Both the position numbers and the translations under genes were made by a program. Positions 1-7,165 of a DNA stretch of 7,165 nucleotides are shown here, piece after piece. This stretch comes from Candidatus Vampirococcus lugosii (GTDB lineage: Bacteria; Patescibacteriota; Gracilibacteria; Absconditabacterales; Absconditicoccaceae), in contig NZ_JAEDAM010000095.1 of assembly GCF_018420025.1 (NCBI RefSeq), positions 1 through 7,165 on the forward strand, read 5' to 3'. The stretch's first letter is position 1. Each line of letters starts with the position of its first letter. The notes under the pieces were generated by a model. The model was given only the letters and a program-made list of their open reading frames with translations. It had not been told where the DNA came from and did no database searches.

Positions 1-258
1 AAAAATCTTGATGAAAAAGATATAGATGCTTTTAATATCGCTTGAGAAGATACAAATCAAAATTTTGATAGGTGGGTAGTACCTTTGGAATACTTTGAAA
101 ATAATAATTATGACATATCACCCAAAAATCCTTTTGAAAAAAAAGATATAGTTTTGTCAATAGATGAAAATCTATCTTTGATAAATAAAGGAAATAGTTG
201 ATTTACACAAGAGTTTGAAAATCTTGAAAAACTTTTGGAAGATAATGATTTGGTATAA
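1..258 (+). CDS. hsdM: Probable type I R-M methyltransferase subunit HsdM, C-terminal fragment (5' end outside window); translated with table 25
   Basis: Frame 1 is open from the window edge to TAA 256-258, with two in-frame TGA (43-45, 199-201). The translation ...NFDRWVVPLEYFENNNYDISPKNPFEKK...LEKLLEDNDLV* has a W...E(Y/I)...N-Y-D/N-L/I-S/N-P tail like HsdM C-termini. It ends 25 nt upstream of hsdS. The call rests on a short fragment plus operon context. Confidence 0.55.
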
Positions 259-283
259 TTTTAATTAATATAAAACTTAAAAA

Positions 284-1756
284 ATGGAACAAAATATATG
301 AGATTTGATTAAAAATCTTGAGTGGAGAGAGGAAAAGTTGGGAAATATTATAGAAAAATCTGAAAAAGAAAATAAAAAATGAGAAAAAAGACCAATTTAT
401 GATGGAATTTTGACAGGTTGAGGATTTTCTAGAAATAAATCTTCTTGAGTTATAAGTGCTTGATGAGACCATATATGAACAGATTGAAAGTTAAGAATAA
501 ATGATAATAATAAAAAATATATTTCAAAAGAGTTATTTGATAAAAGAAATAATACTGAAAAATGAAAAAATGATTTTAAAGAAGTTCATGAAAAAATACT
601 TAAAAATTGAGATATTTTGATGGTTAAAGATTGAGCTGGTAGTTGAAGAGTTTGTTATGTAGATCAGAAAGATTTAGATTTTATTTTAAAAGGTGAAGAC
701 AATAAAGAAATAACAATAAATGAACATGTTTATATATTTAGATTTGATAATAATATTGTAAATCAAAAATTTATTTATTATTATTTTTTCTTTTTATGAG
801 CAGAAAAAATTACTTCTATAACAAGTGCTAATCAAATTATTAATTGAATAAATAGAGGTTCTATTATTGAATTAAGTATAATACTTACTGACCTTCAAAC
901 CCAACAAACAATAGCAAATTTTCTGGATGATTGTTTTGATAAACTTGATAATGCAGATAAATATTTGCAGTTGATTTTTCAAAGCACAAATCAAAAAAGA
1001 TGATGATGAGATGTGATTGACAAAAATTTTTTGAATACAAATTTTGAAGAGATATTGCAAAAATATGATGAAAAGATAGTAAAACTTGAAAAATTAGAAA
1101 AAGATAAACAAAAAAGAAATTTTGAAAATACAGTGATGAAGTGAAACTTGATTGATAATCTATGGAAAAGTATACTTGAAGGGGTTTTAGGAAAATATAA
1201 TACTGAAGATGATGATACATTAAATAATATAATTTCTTGATTTAATAAATGAAAAAAACCAAAAAATTCTGTAGATCCAAATTTAAAACCATATTTAGAT
1301 TTAAATTATTTTAGAACTTGAAAAGTTAAAGAGTATTTAAATGACTGATTGGAAGTTAACAAATGAGATTTAGTTATTGTATGGGACTGAGAAAATAGAT
1401 GAGATAGTTTTATTGTAAATACAAACTGATATTTATCATCTACTATGTCAAAAGTTAATTTAAAAAGATGAAATGAGTTAAAGTTCTTAAATTATATATT
1501 TTTATACTTTAAAGAAGAATTTAAAAATAATTGAGTTTGATGGCACTTAAATAAAGATTATATTTTAAAAAAATCTTTTAATATCCCCGACCTTGAAACT
1601 CAAAAAGAGATAGTAAATATACTTGAAAAAGCATTTATATACTATCAAAGGATGAAAAATAAAGCTGAAAGCAATCAAAAATATCTACAAAATATGAGAA
1701 AATGAATACTTACAAATATATTTGAAACTGCAAATTTACTTTCTAATCAAAAATAA
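284..1756 (+). CDS. hsdS: Type I R-M specificity subunit HsdS (490 aa, two target-recognition domains); table 25
   Basis: ATG 284 is the first start after in-frame TAA 278-280. The frame stays open to TAA 1754-1756 with 30 in-frame TGA (every codon walked by hand) and no TAA/TAG. It has a two-half architecture. Each half has a TRD-type G-D-(I/L)-(L/V)...D-G...G strand: GDILMVKDGAGSGRVCYV at 608-661 and GDLVIVWDGENRGDSFIV at 1364-1417. Each is followed by the conserved-helix start (L/P)DLxTQxxIxxxL(D/E): LTDLQTQQTIANFLD at 884-928 and IPDLETQKEIVNILE at 1583-1627. Confidence 0.85.
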
Positions 1757-1758
1757 AA

Positions 1759-4236
1759 ATGTATACAGAAGCTGACACAAAATCAAAACATATAGAGCCA
1801 AATCTTAAAAAATCTTGATGGGATGAATCAAACATCGCAAGAGAATATAAGATAACAGCTGATAGTATGGTAGTAGTATGAGAAGAATACCACACCAAAA
1901 ACACTGCCAAATTTGCTGATTATGTTTTGAAGATAAACAACAATATCATAGCTATCATAGAAGCTAAAGCTGAAGATCAAGATTTAGATAATCATACCAA
2001 ACAAATCAAAACTTATGTAAATATGATGTGAATGAGATTTTGATTTTTGACAAACTGAAAAAGCATATTGCAATATGATAGCAAAACTCAAGAATTTACA
2101 CACATAGAAAATTTTCCAACTCAAGAACAACTGATAAACCAAATATACGGTAAAAACATAGATATAAAGTCTGATCCTTTGACCTTTCCTTTATACAATC
2201 TATGAACAAGAACTCCAAGATATTATCAACTTAGAGCAGTAAATAGCATCATAAGCAATATTAAAAGATGAAATAAAAAAACTTTACTTGTAATGGCAAC
2301 AGGAACTTGAAAAACTTTTGTATCTTTCCAAACTATATGGAAACTTTATAAATCATGATTTTTCAACAAAATACTTTTTTTAGCAGATAGAAATATACTT
2401 GTTGATCAAGCATTTGACGATTTTGAACCTTTCAAAGATGCAAGATACCGCATACAAGATTGAAAATTTAATCAAAATAGAAATATATATTTTTCAACTT
2501 ATCAAACTTTATATTCTCCAAAGTGAGATGGTTATTTTTATGAGCAGATAGATAAAGATTTTTTTGATTTGATAGTTATAGATGAATGCCATAGATCAAG
2601 ATATGGTAGCTGGTGAGAAGTGCTAAACTGGTTCGGTAGTGCTTATAGTGTATGACTTACTGCCACTCCTCAAAGAAGCGATAATATAGATGTTTTTGAT
2701 TATTTTTGACAACCTGTATATGAGTATAGTATGTGAAAAGCTATAGACGATGGTTATTTAGTACCATATAAAATTTATAAAATTACTTTAAACACTCATA
2801 GAGAATGAATAAAAATAGATGATAATATAAAAATACTTAATCCTGACGAAGTAGATGTAGAAGAAGTAAAAAAACAAAAATTTTATGATCCAAGCAGTAT
2901 AGAAAGAAAGATAATCTGAAAAGAGATAACAGATAAGATATGTAATAAGATATATGATATTGTACAACAAAATAATAAACCTTGAGCCAAAGCTATTGTT
3001 TTTGCAGTAGACAAATCTCATGCAGGTAGAATTTCTGATAAATTATGTGAAATTGCTAAAGATCCTGATTATGCTACTAGAATAGTTTCTGAAGACAAAG
3101 ACGATCTAAGAAAATTTAAAGATATAGAACAAAATAAACCTATAATAGCAACAACTGTAGATTTACTTTCAACTTGAGTAGATATCACAACTGTAGAAAA
3201 TATTGTTTTTGCAAGAAATATAGGCTCTATGACACTTTTTAAGCAAATTATATGAAGATGATCAAGACTTAGCAAATGAAAATGATTTTTTAGAATTATA
3301 GATTTTACAAATGCTACAAGATTCTTAGACGAATGGGATGTGCCAGATGCTGAAGAAGATGAGGAAACAAATAACGAGCAAGCAATTCCTCCATTTGAAA
3401 ATAAATGTTTTGGGCAAGTAGTAGATAAAGAAACTTGAGAATGAATCTATAAAGCATATATCAAAGTAAAAGTTTGAAAAAATATAGTAGCTCATACTTA
3501 TTCAAATCAAGATGGAAGTTTTGAATTTTTTAACTTGCCAAGCAACGAAAAACTAAGAATTATCATAGAATACAAATGATACAAAACAAAAAATAAACTT
3601 ATAGAAAACGAAAACTCTCAAGATATAGAAACTTTTGAACTGAAAAAAATCAAAAAATCAAAAAAGATAAAAGTAGAATGACTTGAAGTATATGAGGAGG
3701 AAGAAGTTATTATAGAATTTGACGGGAAAAGAATGAATTTTGGAGAATATAAAAAATACTCACAAAATGGACTTAAAGAAGAAGTATTTGATATGAACAA
3801 CTTAAAAGAGATCTGGACAAATATAGGAAAAAGAGAGGAATTTATAGATAAGCTAAAAGAAAAAAATATATTTCTTGATTTTCTAAAAAACACTGATGGA
3901 CTTGAAGATGTAGATAAATTTGATTTTATAGCACATACGGTATTTGGGGCACCGATCATATCAAGACATGAAAGATATGAAAAGTTTATGCTTGAAAATG
4001 CTGATAAGATCAAAAATTCTTGAGAAGAATTTGCTGAAGTAGTTTTTTGGATGCTTGAAAAATACAAACTTCATGGAGAAGAAGAACTTTCCCCTGATGT
4101 TTTTGTGCATTCACCGGATAAGATAGATTCTATAAAACAAGTGTATACTAAAGAAAGGTGATGACTTAGAAAATTTATGAGCTGACTTTTACATAAAATT
4201 TATTTTTCTAAAGAAGTAGAATATGGTAGAAAGTAA
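1759..4236 (+). CDS. hsdR: Type I restriction enzyme R subunit HsdR (825 aa), EcoEI/EcoAI-like; table 25
   Basis: ATG 1759 lies 2 nt after the hsdS TAA and is the first start after in-frame TAA 1744-1746. The frame is open to TAA 4234-4236 with about 32 in-frame TGA and no TAA/TAG (all lines checked codon by codon). The N-terminus MYTEADTKSKHIEPNLKKSGW is HsdR-like. There is a PD-(D/E)xK-like D...EAK at 1918-1968. SF2 helicase motifs present: I MATGTGKT (2293-2316), Ia LFLADRN (2374-2394), II DECH (2581-2592), III GLTATP (2653-2667), V STGVD (3169-3183), VI QIIGRGSR (3244-3267). The C-terminal VDKFDFIAHTVFGAPIISRHERYEKF resembles the EcoEI_R_C domain. Confidence 0.93.
1918..1968 (+). other. 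PD-(D/E)xK-type endonuclease motif of HsdR (D-x13-E-A-K)
   Basis: FADYVLKINNNIIAIIEAKA: Asp at 1918-1920, then Glu-Ala-Lys at 1960-1968, in the N-terminal position where HsdR nuclease motifs II/III sit. Confidence 0.6.
2218..3300 (+). other. SF2 (DEAD/DEAH-like) helicase/translocase core of HsdR
   Basis: Ordered motifs Q-like RYYQ, I, Ia, II (DECH), III, V and VI as listed for hsdR. Glycines in motifs I, III, V and VI are TGA-encoded. Confidence 0.9.
3406..3591 (+). other. CarboxypepD_reg-like (transthyretin-like beta-sandwich) domain inserted between the HsdR helicase core and the C-terminal domain
   Basis: CFGQVVDKETGEGIYKAYIKVKVGKNIVAHTYSNQDGSFEFFNLPSNEKLRIIIEYKGYKTK follows the family pattern G-x-V-x-D-x-x-T-G-x-x-(I/L)-x-x-A-x-(V/I)-x-(V/L) ... 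T-x-(S/T)-x-x-D-G-x-F-x-(F/L)-x-x-L-P ... (Y/L)-x-(I/V) ... G-Y. This is pattern recognition only, with no profile search. Confidence 0.55.
3673..4203 (+). other. EcoEI_R_C-like C-terminal domain of HsdR
   Basis: VEGLEVYEEEEVIIEFDGKRMNFGEYKKY...LKEIWTN...REEFIDKLKEKNI...DVDKFDFIAHTVFGAPIISRHERYEKF...FAEVVFWMLEKYKLHGEEEL...GGLRKFMSGLLHKIY matches the remembered consensus of type IB-like HsdR C-termini (DLFDLI-H-AF...R-ERA...). Confidence 0.6.
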
Positions 4237-6808
4237 AAAAAATGATAAATGATATAAAAGTTCTTACAATTCTATTGTAGATTTTTGGAATGATGTTGAA
4301 AAAATACCAAAAAATGAATTTGAAAAAATCTATATAGATACTTTAAATAAAGATAAATCAGATGATTATAATATTGTCCCAACTCCAAGAGATTTGATAG
4401 ATTTAAGTATTGATCTATTTACTAAATTTCTAGAGGGAAAGGAATTTAAAAGTTTGCTTGATCCTTATATGTGAACTTGATGATTTTTGATAAAAGCAAA
4501 AGAAAAACTATCTATAACAAATTTTTATTGATTTGAGATAAAAAAAAGTTTAGAAGAAAAAAATGATAGATATTTTGAAGCAATTTGATTTAAGAAAACG
4601 AATAATTTAAAATATGAAGAATTTGATAAACAATGAGAATATAATTTAATTTTTACAAATCCAGATACTAAAACAAGTTTTGAAAATATAAAAAACCTTT
4701 TATGAAATAATCTTAAAAATAACTGATATGCTATTTTATTCCTACAAGATGAAAAATTAAAAGAGTTTAAAACTACTGAATTTGAAAAGGTTGATCCAAA
4801 ATTTATAGTAAAACTACCTTGATGAATATTTGAAAAATCTTGAATTCAATCAAATATTGTTTTGATACAAAAAAAAGCATATTCATGACAAACTTTATTT
4901 GTAAATTTTAGAGACCAGCAAAAAGACTTTTTACAAAAAACTTGAAAAAAACCAGAATTAATAAAAACTATAGAAAACAATTATAAAGATTGAAAAATTG
5001 ATGAAAAAATAGAAAATGATTATATAAAATTACTTGACTGGGCAAAAATAAATTGATTAAATTATAAATTTGAAACAAATACTTCTATTGACCTTGCTTC
5101 CACATACGAAGTAATAGAAAAAAGTTTTTTTGCATGACTTTGACAATTAAGAAGCTTGAATCATCTTTTGGATAAAAATGATATAATGTCTTTGAAAAAT
5201 ACAGTTTCTATCTTAACTGATAAAAAAATAACTAAGATTATAAAAGAAATTCAAGATTCTCCACAAAAGATACAATCTTCAAAACTTTATGAGATCTTAA
5301 CAGCACTTACAGTTAGTAATTTTTTGATATTTTCATGACCTCCGTGAGTTGGTAAAACAAGTTTAATTGATAAATTATCAAATGCTATTTGATGAAATTT
5401 TAAAAAAATGCCAATCAAATCAAATTTTGTTGATGAAAGTGGGCTTTTATGATATTGGAATCCTTTACTTTCAAGGTATGAATGAACTGAAGTTTTAGAG
5501 TTTATCTTTGAAAGTGCAAAAGTTGAAGAAATACCATATTTTTTACTACTTGATGAGATGAACTTATCAAAAATAGAAAATTATTTTAGCGAATTTTTGG
5601 CAAAGATAGATAATTTACAATCTATTTGAGCAGAAATAAAACTTTTTGATGTGCTTATAGATAGTAAATCTAAATTTAATAATATAAAATATTTTATAGA
5701 CAAGTATTACTTAGATGAAAATCAAATTAATATGAAAAAATGAAATTTTCAAGATTTTTATGATGATTATAAAGAATGAAAACAACTTGAGATAGAAGTA
5801 AAGATAAAACTATCATCAAACCTACATATCATCTGAACTATAAACGAGGATGAGACAACAAATAGTTTATCAAATAAAGTTCTTGATAGAGCTTTTTATA
5901 TAAGTTTATGAGTGGATGATTTATTTGAGGGGAATGAAGAAGATTTTATAAATAAAAGTTATAATTATATAAAAAACATAAAACTACAAAAACAAGAAAT
6001 CAATAAAAAAATAACAGGTAAACAATTAGAAGATGATATATTTAAAAAAATAGAAAAATATTGAGAAGTTGATAGAGAAAAAAAAGTAAATAATAAAAGT
6101 GTAGATTTACTTCAAAATATAGATAATTGATTTTCAAAAATAGATATACTTTATGAGATAAAATCTTCAAATAATCAAGGTAATAATTGAATAAATCAAT
6201 TAAAAGATTATATAAATTTATATAAATCAAATAATCAAGGTAATAATTGAATAAATCAATTAAAAGATTATATAAATTTATATAAATCAAATAATCAAAA
6301 AATATGAATTTTAGTTATTAATTGATTTAATTGAATTGATAGAAAAGATAATATATTTATTTTATGATATGATGTTTTTGATTCTTTTATTGATCTATTT
6401 TTTAAACAAATTTTCTTTATTAAAAATGATGTAAATTATCAAGATATTACTTCAAAAAATAGTTGAAACTTAGAAGATGCAAAGGGAATATTTTCAAAAG
6501 AAGAACAAAAATTTATAAATGAAATAAATGAACTTATACAACAAATAGAAAAAAATGATGCTATAGCTTATAGATCTATAGAATATATGGCAAGTTTTGT
6601 AAAAAATTATAAGGAAAATATAAATAATGTTGATGAAAAAAACATATTAGATATAGTACTTTGTCAAAAAGTCTGGCCCAAGATAAAAAATTATAGTATA
6701 TTATGAAACAAAGAAGATGATTTTAAAAAATTAAAAAACAAGGTTAAAGAACATCTTTGAGAAAAAAGTGAAAGTTGGCAAATGTTAGATAGTATTGATT
6801 TTAATTAA
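4223..6808 (+). CDS. Fusion protein (861 aa): N-terminal HsdM-like gamma-class N6-adenine DNA methyltransferase domain with degenerate catalytic motif, plus C-terminal McrB-type AAA+ (AAA_5-like) NTPase; table 25
   Basis: ATG 4223 is the only ATG between in-frame TAG 4217-4219 and the first conserved motif, and it overlaps the hsdR 3' end by 14 nt. The frame is open to TAA 6806-6808 with 40 in-frame TGA and no TAA/TAG. Every codon was walked, and both domains lie in one continuous frame. MTase-like motifs: IVPTPRDLIDLSIDLF (4373-4420), LLDPYMGTGGFLI (4454-4492), FYGFEI (4523-4540), YNLIFTNPDT (4640-4669), PGGIFEKSGIQSNIVLIQKK (4817-4876). AAA+ motifs: FSGPPGVGKTSL (5330-5365), FLLLDEMNLS followed by KIENYFSEFLAKID (from 5540), IIGTINEDETT (5828-5860), LDRAF (5882-5896). 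Confidence 0.8.
4373..4876 (+). other. HsdM/N6_Mtase-like domain, no own target-recognition domain recognised, catalytic motif IV reads NPDT
   Basis: The order motif X-like (TPRDLIDL) -> I (DPYMGTGGF) -> II (GFEI) -> IV position (FTNPDT) -> VIII-like (LPGGIFEKSGIQSNIVLIQK) is the gamma-class permutation seen in HsdM and Eco57I-type enzymes. Confidence 0.7.
5318..5911 (+). other. McrB-type AAA+ NTPase domain
   Basis: Walker A GPPGVGKT (5336-5359), Walker B LLLDEMN (5543-5563), GTxN sensor segment IIGTINEDETT, and LDRAF. This compares with the E. coli McrB pattern GPPGxGKT ... DEINR ... GTMNTADRS ... D-A-x-x-RRF (from memory). Confidence 0.72.
6167..6298 (+). repeat. Perfect 60-bp tandem duplication (2.2 copies), in frame inside the fusion CDS
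   Basis: 6167-6226 and 6227-6286 are identical at 60/60 positions, and 6287-6298 repeats the first 12 nt. The flanks mismatch at 6166 vs 6226 (t/a) and 6239-6240 vs 6299-6300 (gg/aa). The repeat encodes SNNQGNNGINQLKDYINLYK twice, then SNNQ. Confidence 0.97.
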
Positions 6809-6892
6809 ATTTTGTATTATAAGAAAAAATATTTGCATTTTATAATATAATGAGTATTATAAGAAAAAATATTTATAGATAACAATAATATA
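6809..6892 (+). promoter_or_regulatory. Only sizeable intergenic gap in the window; presumed promoter/leader of the downstream ATPase gene
   Basis: An 84-nt gap lies between TAA 6806-6808 and ATG 6893. There is a TATAAT hexamer at 6841-6846 and another at 6889-6894 that overlaps the start codon. No convincing -35 at canonical spacing, and TATAAT-like hexamers are expected by chance in DNA this AT-rich. Confidence 0.3.
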
Positions 6893-6896
6893 ATGA
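6814..6896 (+). repeat. Imperfect tandem duplication (40 nt + 43 nt) of the leader/start region of the downstream ATPase gene
   Basis: The 21-mer gtattataagaaaaaatattt occurs at 6814-6834 and again at 6854-6874. Both units end in ataatataATGA (6842-6853 and 6885-6896). Unit 2 follows unit 1 directly. Confidence 0.85.
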
Positions 6897-7165
6897 AAAA
6901 CATCATAGAAGAAAATAGGCAATATATATTATCAAAACAAATTTATAATAGAAATTACTATTTAGATAAATTTGCTAATTTTGTAAATACCAAAAATGTG
7001 CTTGTAGTAGAATGACAAAGAAGAGTAGGGAAAAGTTCGGTAGTTATATCTTTTTTGAAATCAAACAATATAGATTTGAATAAAGTTTTTTATATCAATA
7101 AAGAATTGGACATATTAAATAATATAAAAAATGCTGTAGATTTGGATGAAGTTTTTAGTTTCTTT
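6893..7165 (+). CDS. AAA+ ATPase, AAA_14/DUF4143 (COG1373-like) family, N-terminal fragment (3' end outside window); table 25
   Basis: ATG 6893 is the first start after in-frame TAA 6860-6862, and the frame is open to the window end (91 codons). MKNIIEENRQYILSKQIYNRNYYLDKFANFVNTKNVLVVEGQRRVGKSSVVISFLK... has Walker A G-Q-R-R-V-G-K-S (7013-7036, first Gly is TGA). This matches the typical G-x-R-R-(V/T)-GK-(S/T) start of that family. Confidence 0.55.

Follow-up and report, generated by a model that had tools for sequence, protein, structure and literature searches.

The locus described here lies in a 7,165-nt stretch of DNA from Candidatus Vampirococcus lugosii (contig NZ_JAEDAM010000095.1, positions 1 to 7,165; hereafter the window). 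When TGA is read as a sense codon, the plus strand of the window carries a tight co-directional array formed by the 3′-end of hsdM, hsdS, hsdR, an open reading frame (ORF) that we named X1, and the start of an AAA_14 gene. X1 is a single frame running from ATG 4223 to the TAA at 6806-6808 (4223..6808, + strand). Its 861 codons encode an HsdM-like domain followed by an NxD-type McrB-like AAA+ nucleoside triphosphatase (NTPase), and the gene, from its ATG on, shares its first 11 nt with the end of hsdR, stop codon included. X1 takes the fourth place in a Type I restriction-modification (R-M) operon of a code-25 genome and is translationally coupled. An earlier note on the window had proposed a single fused ORF of this kind; the frame is indeed uninterrupted once TGA is recoded, and all motifs quoted in that note are found in X1 where they had been placed. 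Independent contigs from other samples share the architecture of a methyltransferase (MTase)-like domain joined to an AAA+ NTPase (proteins P0003 of loci L001/L002, P0002 of L006 and P0004 of L007, as well as locus L069). Thus, the X1 fusion is not an assembly artefact.

Under translation table 11, the 4223-6808 frame contains 40 in-frame TGA codons. At the base composition of the window (22% GC), the chance of 861 codons without TAA or TAG is ~10^-33. When X1 was aligned with standard-code homologues, its TGA codons stood opposite 19 Gly and 0 Trp among the aligned residues, which rules out code 4 (TGA = Trp). Glycines of X1 encoded by TGA include G372 and G375 of Walker A, G410, and G538. 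Helicase motifs I, III, and VI of HsdR have their invariant glycines encoded by TGA as well. Over the window, 104 TGA codons were counted against 38 GGN codons. The window uses code 25 (TGA = Gly), the code of Gracilibacteria and Absconditabacteria.

The three genes upstream of X1 were assigned as follows. The hsdM gene (Type I methyltransferase subunit; 1..255, +) is cut by the window start; its remaining part matches positions 423-490 of the 491-position PADLOC model MTase_I (PDLC03021, E = 8.6e-4), and the order with hsdS and hsdR agrees with this assignment. The specificity gene hsdS (284..1753, +; 490 aa in code 25) matches Pfam Methylase_S in two stretches (6.6e-15). The restriction gene hsdR (1759..4233, +; 825 aa in code 25, stop TAA 4231-4233) matches Pfam ResIII (2.2e-43), HSDR_N_2, Helicase_C, and EcoEI_R_C.

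The N-terminal part of X1 contains a core resembling HsdM, a gamma-class N6-adenine MTase (aa 44-231; 4352..4915, +). In a BLASTP comparison, it aligned with residues 249-485 of the genuine HsdM of L001 (E = 4e-7), from motifs X and I (TPR...DPxxGTGGFL) through motif VIII (LPGG[IV]F). Residues 1-319 taken alone matched the Type I MTase models of PADLOC at 8e-11 (MTase_I) and 2.4e-10, and the Type II model more weakly (2.7e-7). A profile built from four N-modules matched the HsdM profile with an hhalign probability of 96.4%, over 50 columns only; searched against the PDB, the N-module profile found methyltransferases only, with marginal E-values (best 1e-4). No Pfam MTase domain, HsdM_N included, was detected in X1 at E <= 0.1, NCBIfam gave no more than sub-threshold matches, and the N-module profile had no match in a database of 5.8 billion proteins. 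The relative P0003, with canonical DPCCGSGGF...SNPPFG, does exceed the Pfam MTase threshold (UPF0020, 30 bits). Structure modelling and the exhaustive database search were carried out with P0003 (in which recoded Gly positions read W) and not with the window protein. The AlphaFold2 (AF2) model of P0003 left the MTase-like region unresolved, with a predicted local distance difference test score (pLDDT) below 50, so the MTase fold is assigned solely from sequence comparisons.

The motifs of this module follow one another on the plus strand in the order X (4382-4405; TPRDLIDL, residues 54-61), I (4460-4492; DPYMGTGGFLI, 80-90), II (4526-4540; GFEI, 103-106), a degenerate IV (4652-4669; FTNPDT, 144-149), and VIII (4814-4873; LPGGIF..., 198-217). 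Motif I, which binds S-adenosylmethionine (AdoMet), is intact and preceded by motif X (TPR), and the two align with FFTPRSVIK...DPCCGTGGFL of HsdM; D80, P81, G84, and G86 of motif I are invariant across the four aligned fusion proteins. Motif IV is variable: opposite NPPF of HsdM, X1 and L069 have NPDT, P0004 has NPPS, P0002 has NLAN, and P0003 has NPPF. The X1 version departs from the canonical (N/D/S)PP(F/Y/W), since both the second Pro and the aromatic residue are absent. For this reason the N-terminal domain of X1 is probably not an active methyltransferase; it probably still binds AdoMet. The gamma-class assignment made earlier holds as homology to HsdM (by BLASTP, PADLOC, and hhalign), but not as a canonical enzyme: FTNPDT is a non-canonical motif IV, and Pfam is blind to the domain.

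Neither of the parts that flank the core in HsdM was recognised in X1. The alignment begins at HsdM residue 249, and the N-terminal domain of HsdM is absent. No similarity was detected between X1 and a C-terminal fragment of HsdM that includes the HsdS-contacting tail, so this comparison lends no support to the idea that X1 keeps the tail. There is also no target-recognition domain (TRD) in X1, in agreement with what had been noticed in its HsdM-like part. An origin of the module as a recent duplicate of the neighbouring hsdM was considered and found no support (24-29% identity between N-modules and the neighbouring HsdM). X1 and L069 are 54% identical in the N-module, 64% in the AAA+ core, and 52% in the C-terminal domain, with FTNPDT identical in both. 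Because L069 keeps NPDT and the identity of the N-module is close to that of the AAA+ core, we consider the degenerate state to be conserved under constraint rather than a result of random decay. Judging by these alignments, the N-terminal module is HsdM-derived and degenerate.

A helical linker, recognised previously, separates the two halves of the protein (aa 287-365; 5081..5317, +); the model of P0003 has long helices at the corresponding site, predicted with low to medium confidence. It is followed by an AAA_5/McrB-type NTPase core (aa 366-570; 5318..5932, +), which matches Pfam AAA (1e-6) and AAA_5 (7e-4, just under the Pfam gathering score). On the plus strand, the core carries Walker A (5336-5359; GPPGVGKT, residues 372-379), LLGYWN (5444-5470), Walker B (5540-5599; FLLLDEMN, 440-447, and LLLDEMNLS..., 441-459), sensor-1 (5828-5860; IIGTINEDETT, 536-546), and LDRAF (5867-5896; 554-558). 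The Walker A and B columns are invariant in the family alignments, all NTPase motifs are intact in X1, and the stretch from Walker B to sensor-1 contains an insert. When a profile covering the core plus the C-terminus was searched against the PDB, McrB (6hz4, 2e-8) was the best single-domain match; midasin and dynein, which are multi-AAA_5 proteins, were matched as well. With 148 homologues, AF2 modelled P0003 at pLDDT >90 over the AAA+ core and C-terminal lid (pLDDT 35 from the single sequence), and in a Foldseek search with this model E. coli McrB chains (6hz4, 6ut6) were the only three matches at E <= 1e-3. The McrB/AAA_5 nature of the central part suggested by the earlier note is thus borne out by sensor-1, by profile, and by fold.

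Sensor-1 has the form of a shortened NxD, typically GTxNxDETT, in all 132 of the 132 relatives that could be classified. An NxD motif followed by E defines the 'NxD clade' of McrB-like GTPases in a census of McrBC systems (Bell et al. 2024, PMC11090510). Since GTINEDETT of X1 is such a shortened NxD sensor-1, its sequence places X1 within this known clade. The core also matches the PADLOC candidate model PDC-M26A (125 bits, E = 8e-37, model positions 290-442, i.e., the core only). Ordinary McrB homologues of the NxD type reach 125-181 bits with this model, equal to or better than X1, and the match is therefore informative at the family level only. The PDC-M26B partner was not recognised among the neighbours in any locus, and literature searches found no publication on PDC-M26.

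The last ~300 residues, previously described as helical or low-complexity, fall into two parts, of which the second is a conserved domain of the family. Residues 571-745 (5933..6457, +) form a variable insert that, in the alignment with relatives, is absent or different in most of them. Inside it, positions 6167-6298 hold a perfect 60-bp tandem duplication (2.2 copies with 100% matches in Tandem Repeats Finder) that repeats the 20-aa unit SNNQGNNGINQLKDYINLYK; as the insert is missing from most relatives, the duplication is a very recent in-frame expansion. Residues 746-861 (6458..6805, +) are a conserved C-terminal helical (lid) domain with invariant or near-invariant alignment columns, including the invariant R784 (AIAYR) and D810 (LDIVLCQKVWPK), and with pLDDT of about 90 in the P0003 model.

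We then looked at how widespread the fusion is. A HMMER search with P0003 against 1.84 billion representatives yielded 5,838 relatives at E <= 1e-3, 1,789 at E <= 1e-10, and 8 at E <= 1e-30. Among 155 relatives that were retrieved, local hidden Markov model and motif scans found an MTase-like N-terminus only in P0002, P0003, and P0004; a metagenome scan added the L069 fusion, the closest relative of X1 found. All MTase-like fusions known here come from recoded genomes, where they are confined to a tiny subgroup with 8 representatives among the 1.84 billion proteins and with five loci. A Pfam survey of 81 representatives detected AAA_5 in 59, along with specificity domains typical of McrB (MrcB_N, EVE, DCD, CSD, MTaX1, and HARE-HTH), and a methyltransferase domain in none. 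Two other states of the N-terminus occur on the same chassis: P0001 carries half of an HsdS (Pfam Methylase_S), and P0012 has no N-module. Only distant relatives were present among GTDB representatives, viral contigs contained none, and phage records gave two distant matches; a phage origin was rejected. The census associates McrB GTPases of all three motif clades with methyltransferases by context and describes no fusion (PMC11090510). Neither there nor in literature searches did we find a McrB-family protein with a methyltransferase-fold N-terminus, in agreement with the earlier note. Its proposal of a new defence component has to be narrowed: the AAA+ part belongs to a described clade, and in relatives the protein, rather than standing alone, is a subunit of a larger cassette that also encodes a McrC-like nuclease and another McrB paralogue. 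X1 is a rare, lineage-restricted variant of a known defence motor and not a new kind of system.

The genomic neighbourhood of the fusion is consistent. In all five cases (5/5), an HsdM-like X1 gene lies directly downstream of Type I genes, after hsdR in the window and L069 and after hsdM in L001/L002, L006, and L007, with junctions that overlap or span 5-7 nt. In recoded relatives, the cassette runs in the order X1, a transmembrane (TM) protein or AAA_14 gene, X2 (a second McrB-like paralogue), Y, and Z. The second position is taken by a TM protein of 414-462 aa in L001, L005, and L007, and by an AAA_14/DUF4143 ATPase in the window, L006, and L066. The window ends inside its AAA_14 gene, before the position of X2-Y-Z; X2 comes next in L006, where X1 is likewise followed by AAA_14. 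The N-terminus of X2 is a PD-T4-1-like or MrcB_N-like reader. Y (238-422 aa) has no detectable homologues and no similarity to McrC or to Pfam or PADLOC models. Z is not recognised by Pfam and carries LYE[IY]WL...TPDFI...F[LF]DAKFSKY. A McrC profile was made from the standard-code partners; against its nuclease domain, hhalign gave Z a probability of 78% with one sequence, 93% with two, and 90% with three (E down to 3e-7), PDF...DAKF being aligned. In standard-code genomes (57 loci), a tightly coupled ORF almost always follows the McrB-like gene, and all tested downstream partners (6/6) were McrC proteins with DUF2357 and PD-(D/E)xK.

Several features of these loci deserve separate mention. 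The AAA_14/DUF4143-type ATPase gene of the window, of which the 5′ part is present (6893..7165, +; Pfam AAA_14 3e-5, PADLOC PDC-S01 6.9e-13), has counterparts, likewise matching the PADLOC candidate PDC-S01, after X1 at L006 8279-9484 and L066 2426-2566. It appears in three independent loci, either as an insertion that recurs or as a functional partner. A 40-nt imperfect direct repeat (6799-6878; 75% identity, core GTATTATAAGAAAAAATATTT present twice) extends across the X1 stop and the spacer that precedes this gene. Because L069, which has the same hsdR-X1 locus type, lacks the AAA_14 gene, this repeat could be a scar left by insertion, or an operator. Promoter-like sites showed no enrichment at the locus, and neither terminators nor Rfam matches were found there. 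A conserved protein of ~410-600 aa with C-terminal TM helices and a terminal Cys motif (KEGKSCFE) is encoded in five cassette loci (L001 8783-10171; L005 3622-4866; L007 9181-10560; L065 5529-7325, minus strand; L068 3094-4233, minus strand); it shows no similarity to McrC, is not matched by any Pfam or PADLOC model, and may act as a membrane effector.

Other observations concern the surrounding genes. The HsdR of the window has, at aa 552-630, a carboxypeptidase-regulatory-like beta-sandwich between the helicase and EcoEI_R_C (CarbopepD_reg_2 PF13715 8.9e-10; PF13620 4e-8), an uncommon feature in a Type I R subunit. Two Type I operons upstream of X1 relatives contain, between hsdS and hsdM, an AbiEi/AbiEii toxin-antitoxin pair (L006 3134-4376; L007 3859-5101). 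The L005 cassette, which is headed by the HsdS-like X1 variant P0001, starts right behind a tRNA-Lys(CTT) gene (835-910), suggesting an integrated island. The Z protein of L068 (734-3097) contains a sigma-70 region 2-like insert (…LQMYLNEIEKN…VVSIAKKY…LIQKGNEGLFKAIDAYNP) that L065 and L070 Z lack. Finally, a small shared N-terminal element (…ING.xI.PL…) is attached to different bodies, either McrB-like cores or TPR/HEAT-repeat proteins (P0005, P0006; L069 2403-2972; L001 10202-11461), and looks like a mobile adaptor domain.

McrB-family motors are known to swap small N-terminal reader domains for modified bases. The E. coli K-12 McrBC system (Type IV; 6hz4, 6ut6) shares with X1 the arrangement of an N-terminal specificity domain and an AAA+ motor, is its best solved-structure match by both profile and fold, and is likewise encoded next to hsdRMS; the short E. 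coli form without the N-domain, McrB-S, is resembled by P0012. X1 differs from E. coli McrB in having NxD instead of NTAD and DEMNLS instead of DEINRA, in its N-domain and large inserts, in an overall identity of about 20%, and in having no adjacent mcrC in the window. LlaJI and related methylation-blocked R-M systems use McrBC-like R subunits, with a B3-like DNA-binding domain in LlaJI.R1, and separate Type IIS-like methylases. They resemble the X1 locus in placing a McrB-like NTPase in a conventional R-M context that is not purely modification-dependent, whereas X1 has a degenerate MTase fold joined to the motor, in a Type I context. With the NxD clade (PMC11090510), which includes CnuB of CoCoNuT systems and methyltransferase-associated McrBC, X1 shares the AAA_5 core, Walker A and B, NxD followed by E, the insert between Walker B and NxD, the lid, and the modular N-terminus. 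Its relatives are paired with a McrC of DUF2357 and PD-(D/E)xK, and a contextual link to methyltransferases and R-M is common to both. In contrast to readers such as EVE, ADAM (DUF3578/MrcB_N), or CSD, and to long coiled coils, the N-module of X1 is an HsdM-derived MTase fold and that of P0001 half of an HsdS. The X1 group is also distinguished by two tandem McrB paralogues, by a McrC-like gene that other genes separate from X1, and by its confinement to code-25 lineages. Assignment of X1 itself to CoCoNuT was ruled out, as it has a helical linker of only ~80 aa and no helicase or HEPN neighbours; the distant relatives P0008-P0010 have long coiled coils.

The interpretation that we favour, and hold to be somewhat better than an even bet, is that X1 is the NTP-driven motor subunit of a McrB-type machine, that its degenerate, HsdM-derived, and probably AdoMet-binding domain targets or gates this motor, and that cleavage is provided by the McrC-like Z, possibly with X2. 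The MTase-fold domain would then fill the McrB specificity slot as a DNA-targeting or state-sensing module, acting either through adenine flipping and inspection or through docking on HsdS. The AAA+ domain would form a McrB-like hexameric motor powered by NTP hydrolysis, and the downstream PD-(D/E)xK nuclease Z would cut DNA together with X2, which carries the conventional reader domain. Homology and synteny are what point to the hexamer, the NTPase activity, the reader role of the N-domain, and the partnership with Z, and from them we would also expect X2-Y-Z to lie past the window end.

A number of observations weigh against a McrB-type machine of this composition. There is no McrC-like gene within the window, where an AAA_14 ATPase comes next. 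In relatives, Z comes after X2-Y and not after X1, and may serve X2 only. HsdM alone, without HsdS, is a poor DNA binder. The N-domain goes unrecognised by Pfam, and AF2 is unreliable in this region (pLDDT <50). In three relatives, the gene coupled to X1 encodes a membrane protein with no McrC similarity, which hints at a different effector. The L069 copy has an in-frame stop in motif I (DPYMGT*GF, ~340-380) and a D->Y change in Walker B (LLLYEMN), and is either decaying or affected by sequencing errors.

An alternative that we regard as unlikely, and yet the one to be taken most seriously, makes the module an adaptor within the Type I M/S assembly: X1 (or P0001 with its half-HsdS) would replace an HsdM on HsdS and tether a McrB-type motor there. 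Such a guard could bring a second nuclease or effector to the same sites, or could sense an attack on the complex by phage anti-restriction proteins and trigger an abortive response through the membrane protein. It would fit with the Type I origin of both alternative N-modules, HsdM-like in the window, P0002-P0004, and L069, and HsdS-like in P0001. Equally in keeping with it are the placement of HsdM-like X1 directly after Type I genes in 5/5 cases, the degeneration of catalytic motif IV with retention of motif I, and the TM protein, which is tightly coupled to X1 in L001, L005, and L007 and present in L065 and L068. A precedent exists in PrrC, an anticodon nuclease with an ABC-like NTPase and an RNase domain, which is embedded in the EcoprrI Type Ic operon and held latent by the R-M complex. 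Like X1, PrrC is encoded by an NTPase gene that lies inside a Type I operon and is co-transcribed with it, but PrrC contains no MTase fold and has no McrB homology. Speaking against an adaptor are the parts that X1 lacks, namely the HsdM N-terminal domain and any detectable similarity to the HsdS-contacting C-terminal tail, and the 24-29% identity of N-modules to the neighbouring HsdM, with no sign of matched co-evolution. Moreover, Type I genes are missing from the 1.3 kb upstream of the HsdS-like variant in L005, which adjoins tRNA-Lys.

It is improbable that X1 is a working N6-adenine methyltransferase-NTPase, whether as an additional modification enzyme or as the self-protecting methylase of a linked McrBC-like nuclease. 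X1 does retain motif I, the acidic residue of motif II, and the Asn of motif IV, the P0003 version is canonical and above the Pfam threshold, and McrB-like GTPases of all three motif clades are tied to DNA methyltransferases by context (PMC11090510). However, NPDT of X1 offers neither the second Pro nor an aromatic residue to stack on a flipped adenine, P0004 (NPPS) and P0002 (NLAN) depart from the canonical motif too, X1 has no TRD and no Pfam MTase match, and the operon already contains a full hsdM. Slightly less probable again is a sensor, in which a dead MTase domain would bind AdoMet, report its depletion by phage enzymes that degrade it, and gate the motor and effector. The invariance of motif I in four fusion proteins (D80, P81, G84, G86) beside a variable catalytic motif is what such a sensor would show; yet P0002 and P0004 do not conserve the acidic residue of motif II, and the HsdS-like and N-module-less (P0012) variants of the same chassis cannot sense AdoMet. 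Least probable of all is that the N-module is a functionless captured hsdM fragment, with X1 working like the truncated E. coli McrB-S or being a pseudogene: the modules have diverged strongly (20-26% identity among subgroups, with little beyond motif I left in P0002 and P0004), P0012 is a natural N-module-less form, and L069 has its stop and Walker B lesion, but the 861-codon ORF of the window is intact in a 22% GC genome with all NTPase motifs in place, and its N-module is 54% identical to that of L069, exact FTNPDT included, comparable with 52% for the C-terminal domain.

For the organism, the locus illustrates how much of the defence-gene diversity in code-25 members of the Candidate Phyla Radiation escapes standard annotation: table 11 splits X1 into dozens of fragments, and table 4 turns every one of its recoded Gly residues into Trp. 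If the docking alternative were true, a McrBC-like nuclease and/or a membrane effector would be controlled by Type I target recognition, or by whether the Type I complex stays intact when anti-restriction proteins attack it, and X1 would physically link Type I with Type IV-like systems, the first such bridge. For the McrB family, the reader slot of the motor here holds a whole degenerate methyltransferase fold, or half of a Type I specificity subunit in a sister protein. Should the module read the adenine methylation state or dock on HsdS, a restriction system could reuse its own modification enzyme as a sensor, and X1 would provide a mechanistic link between Type I and McrBC-like (Type IV-like) machineries.

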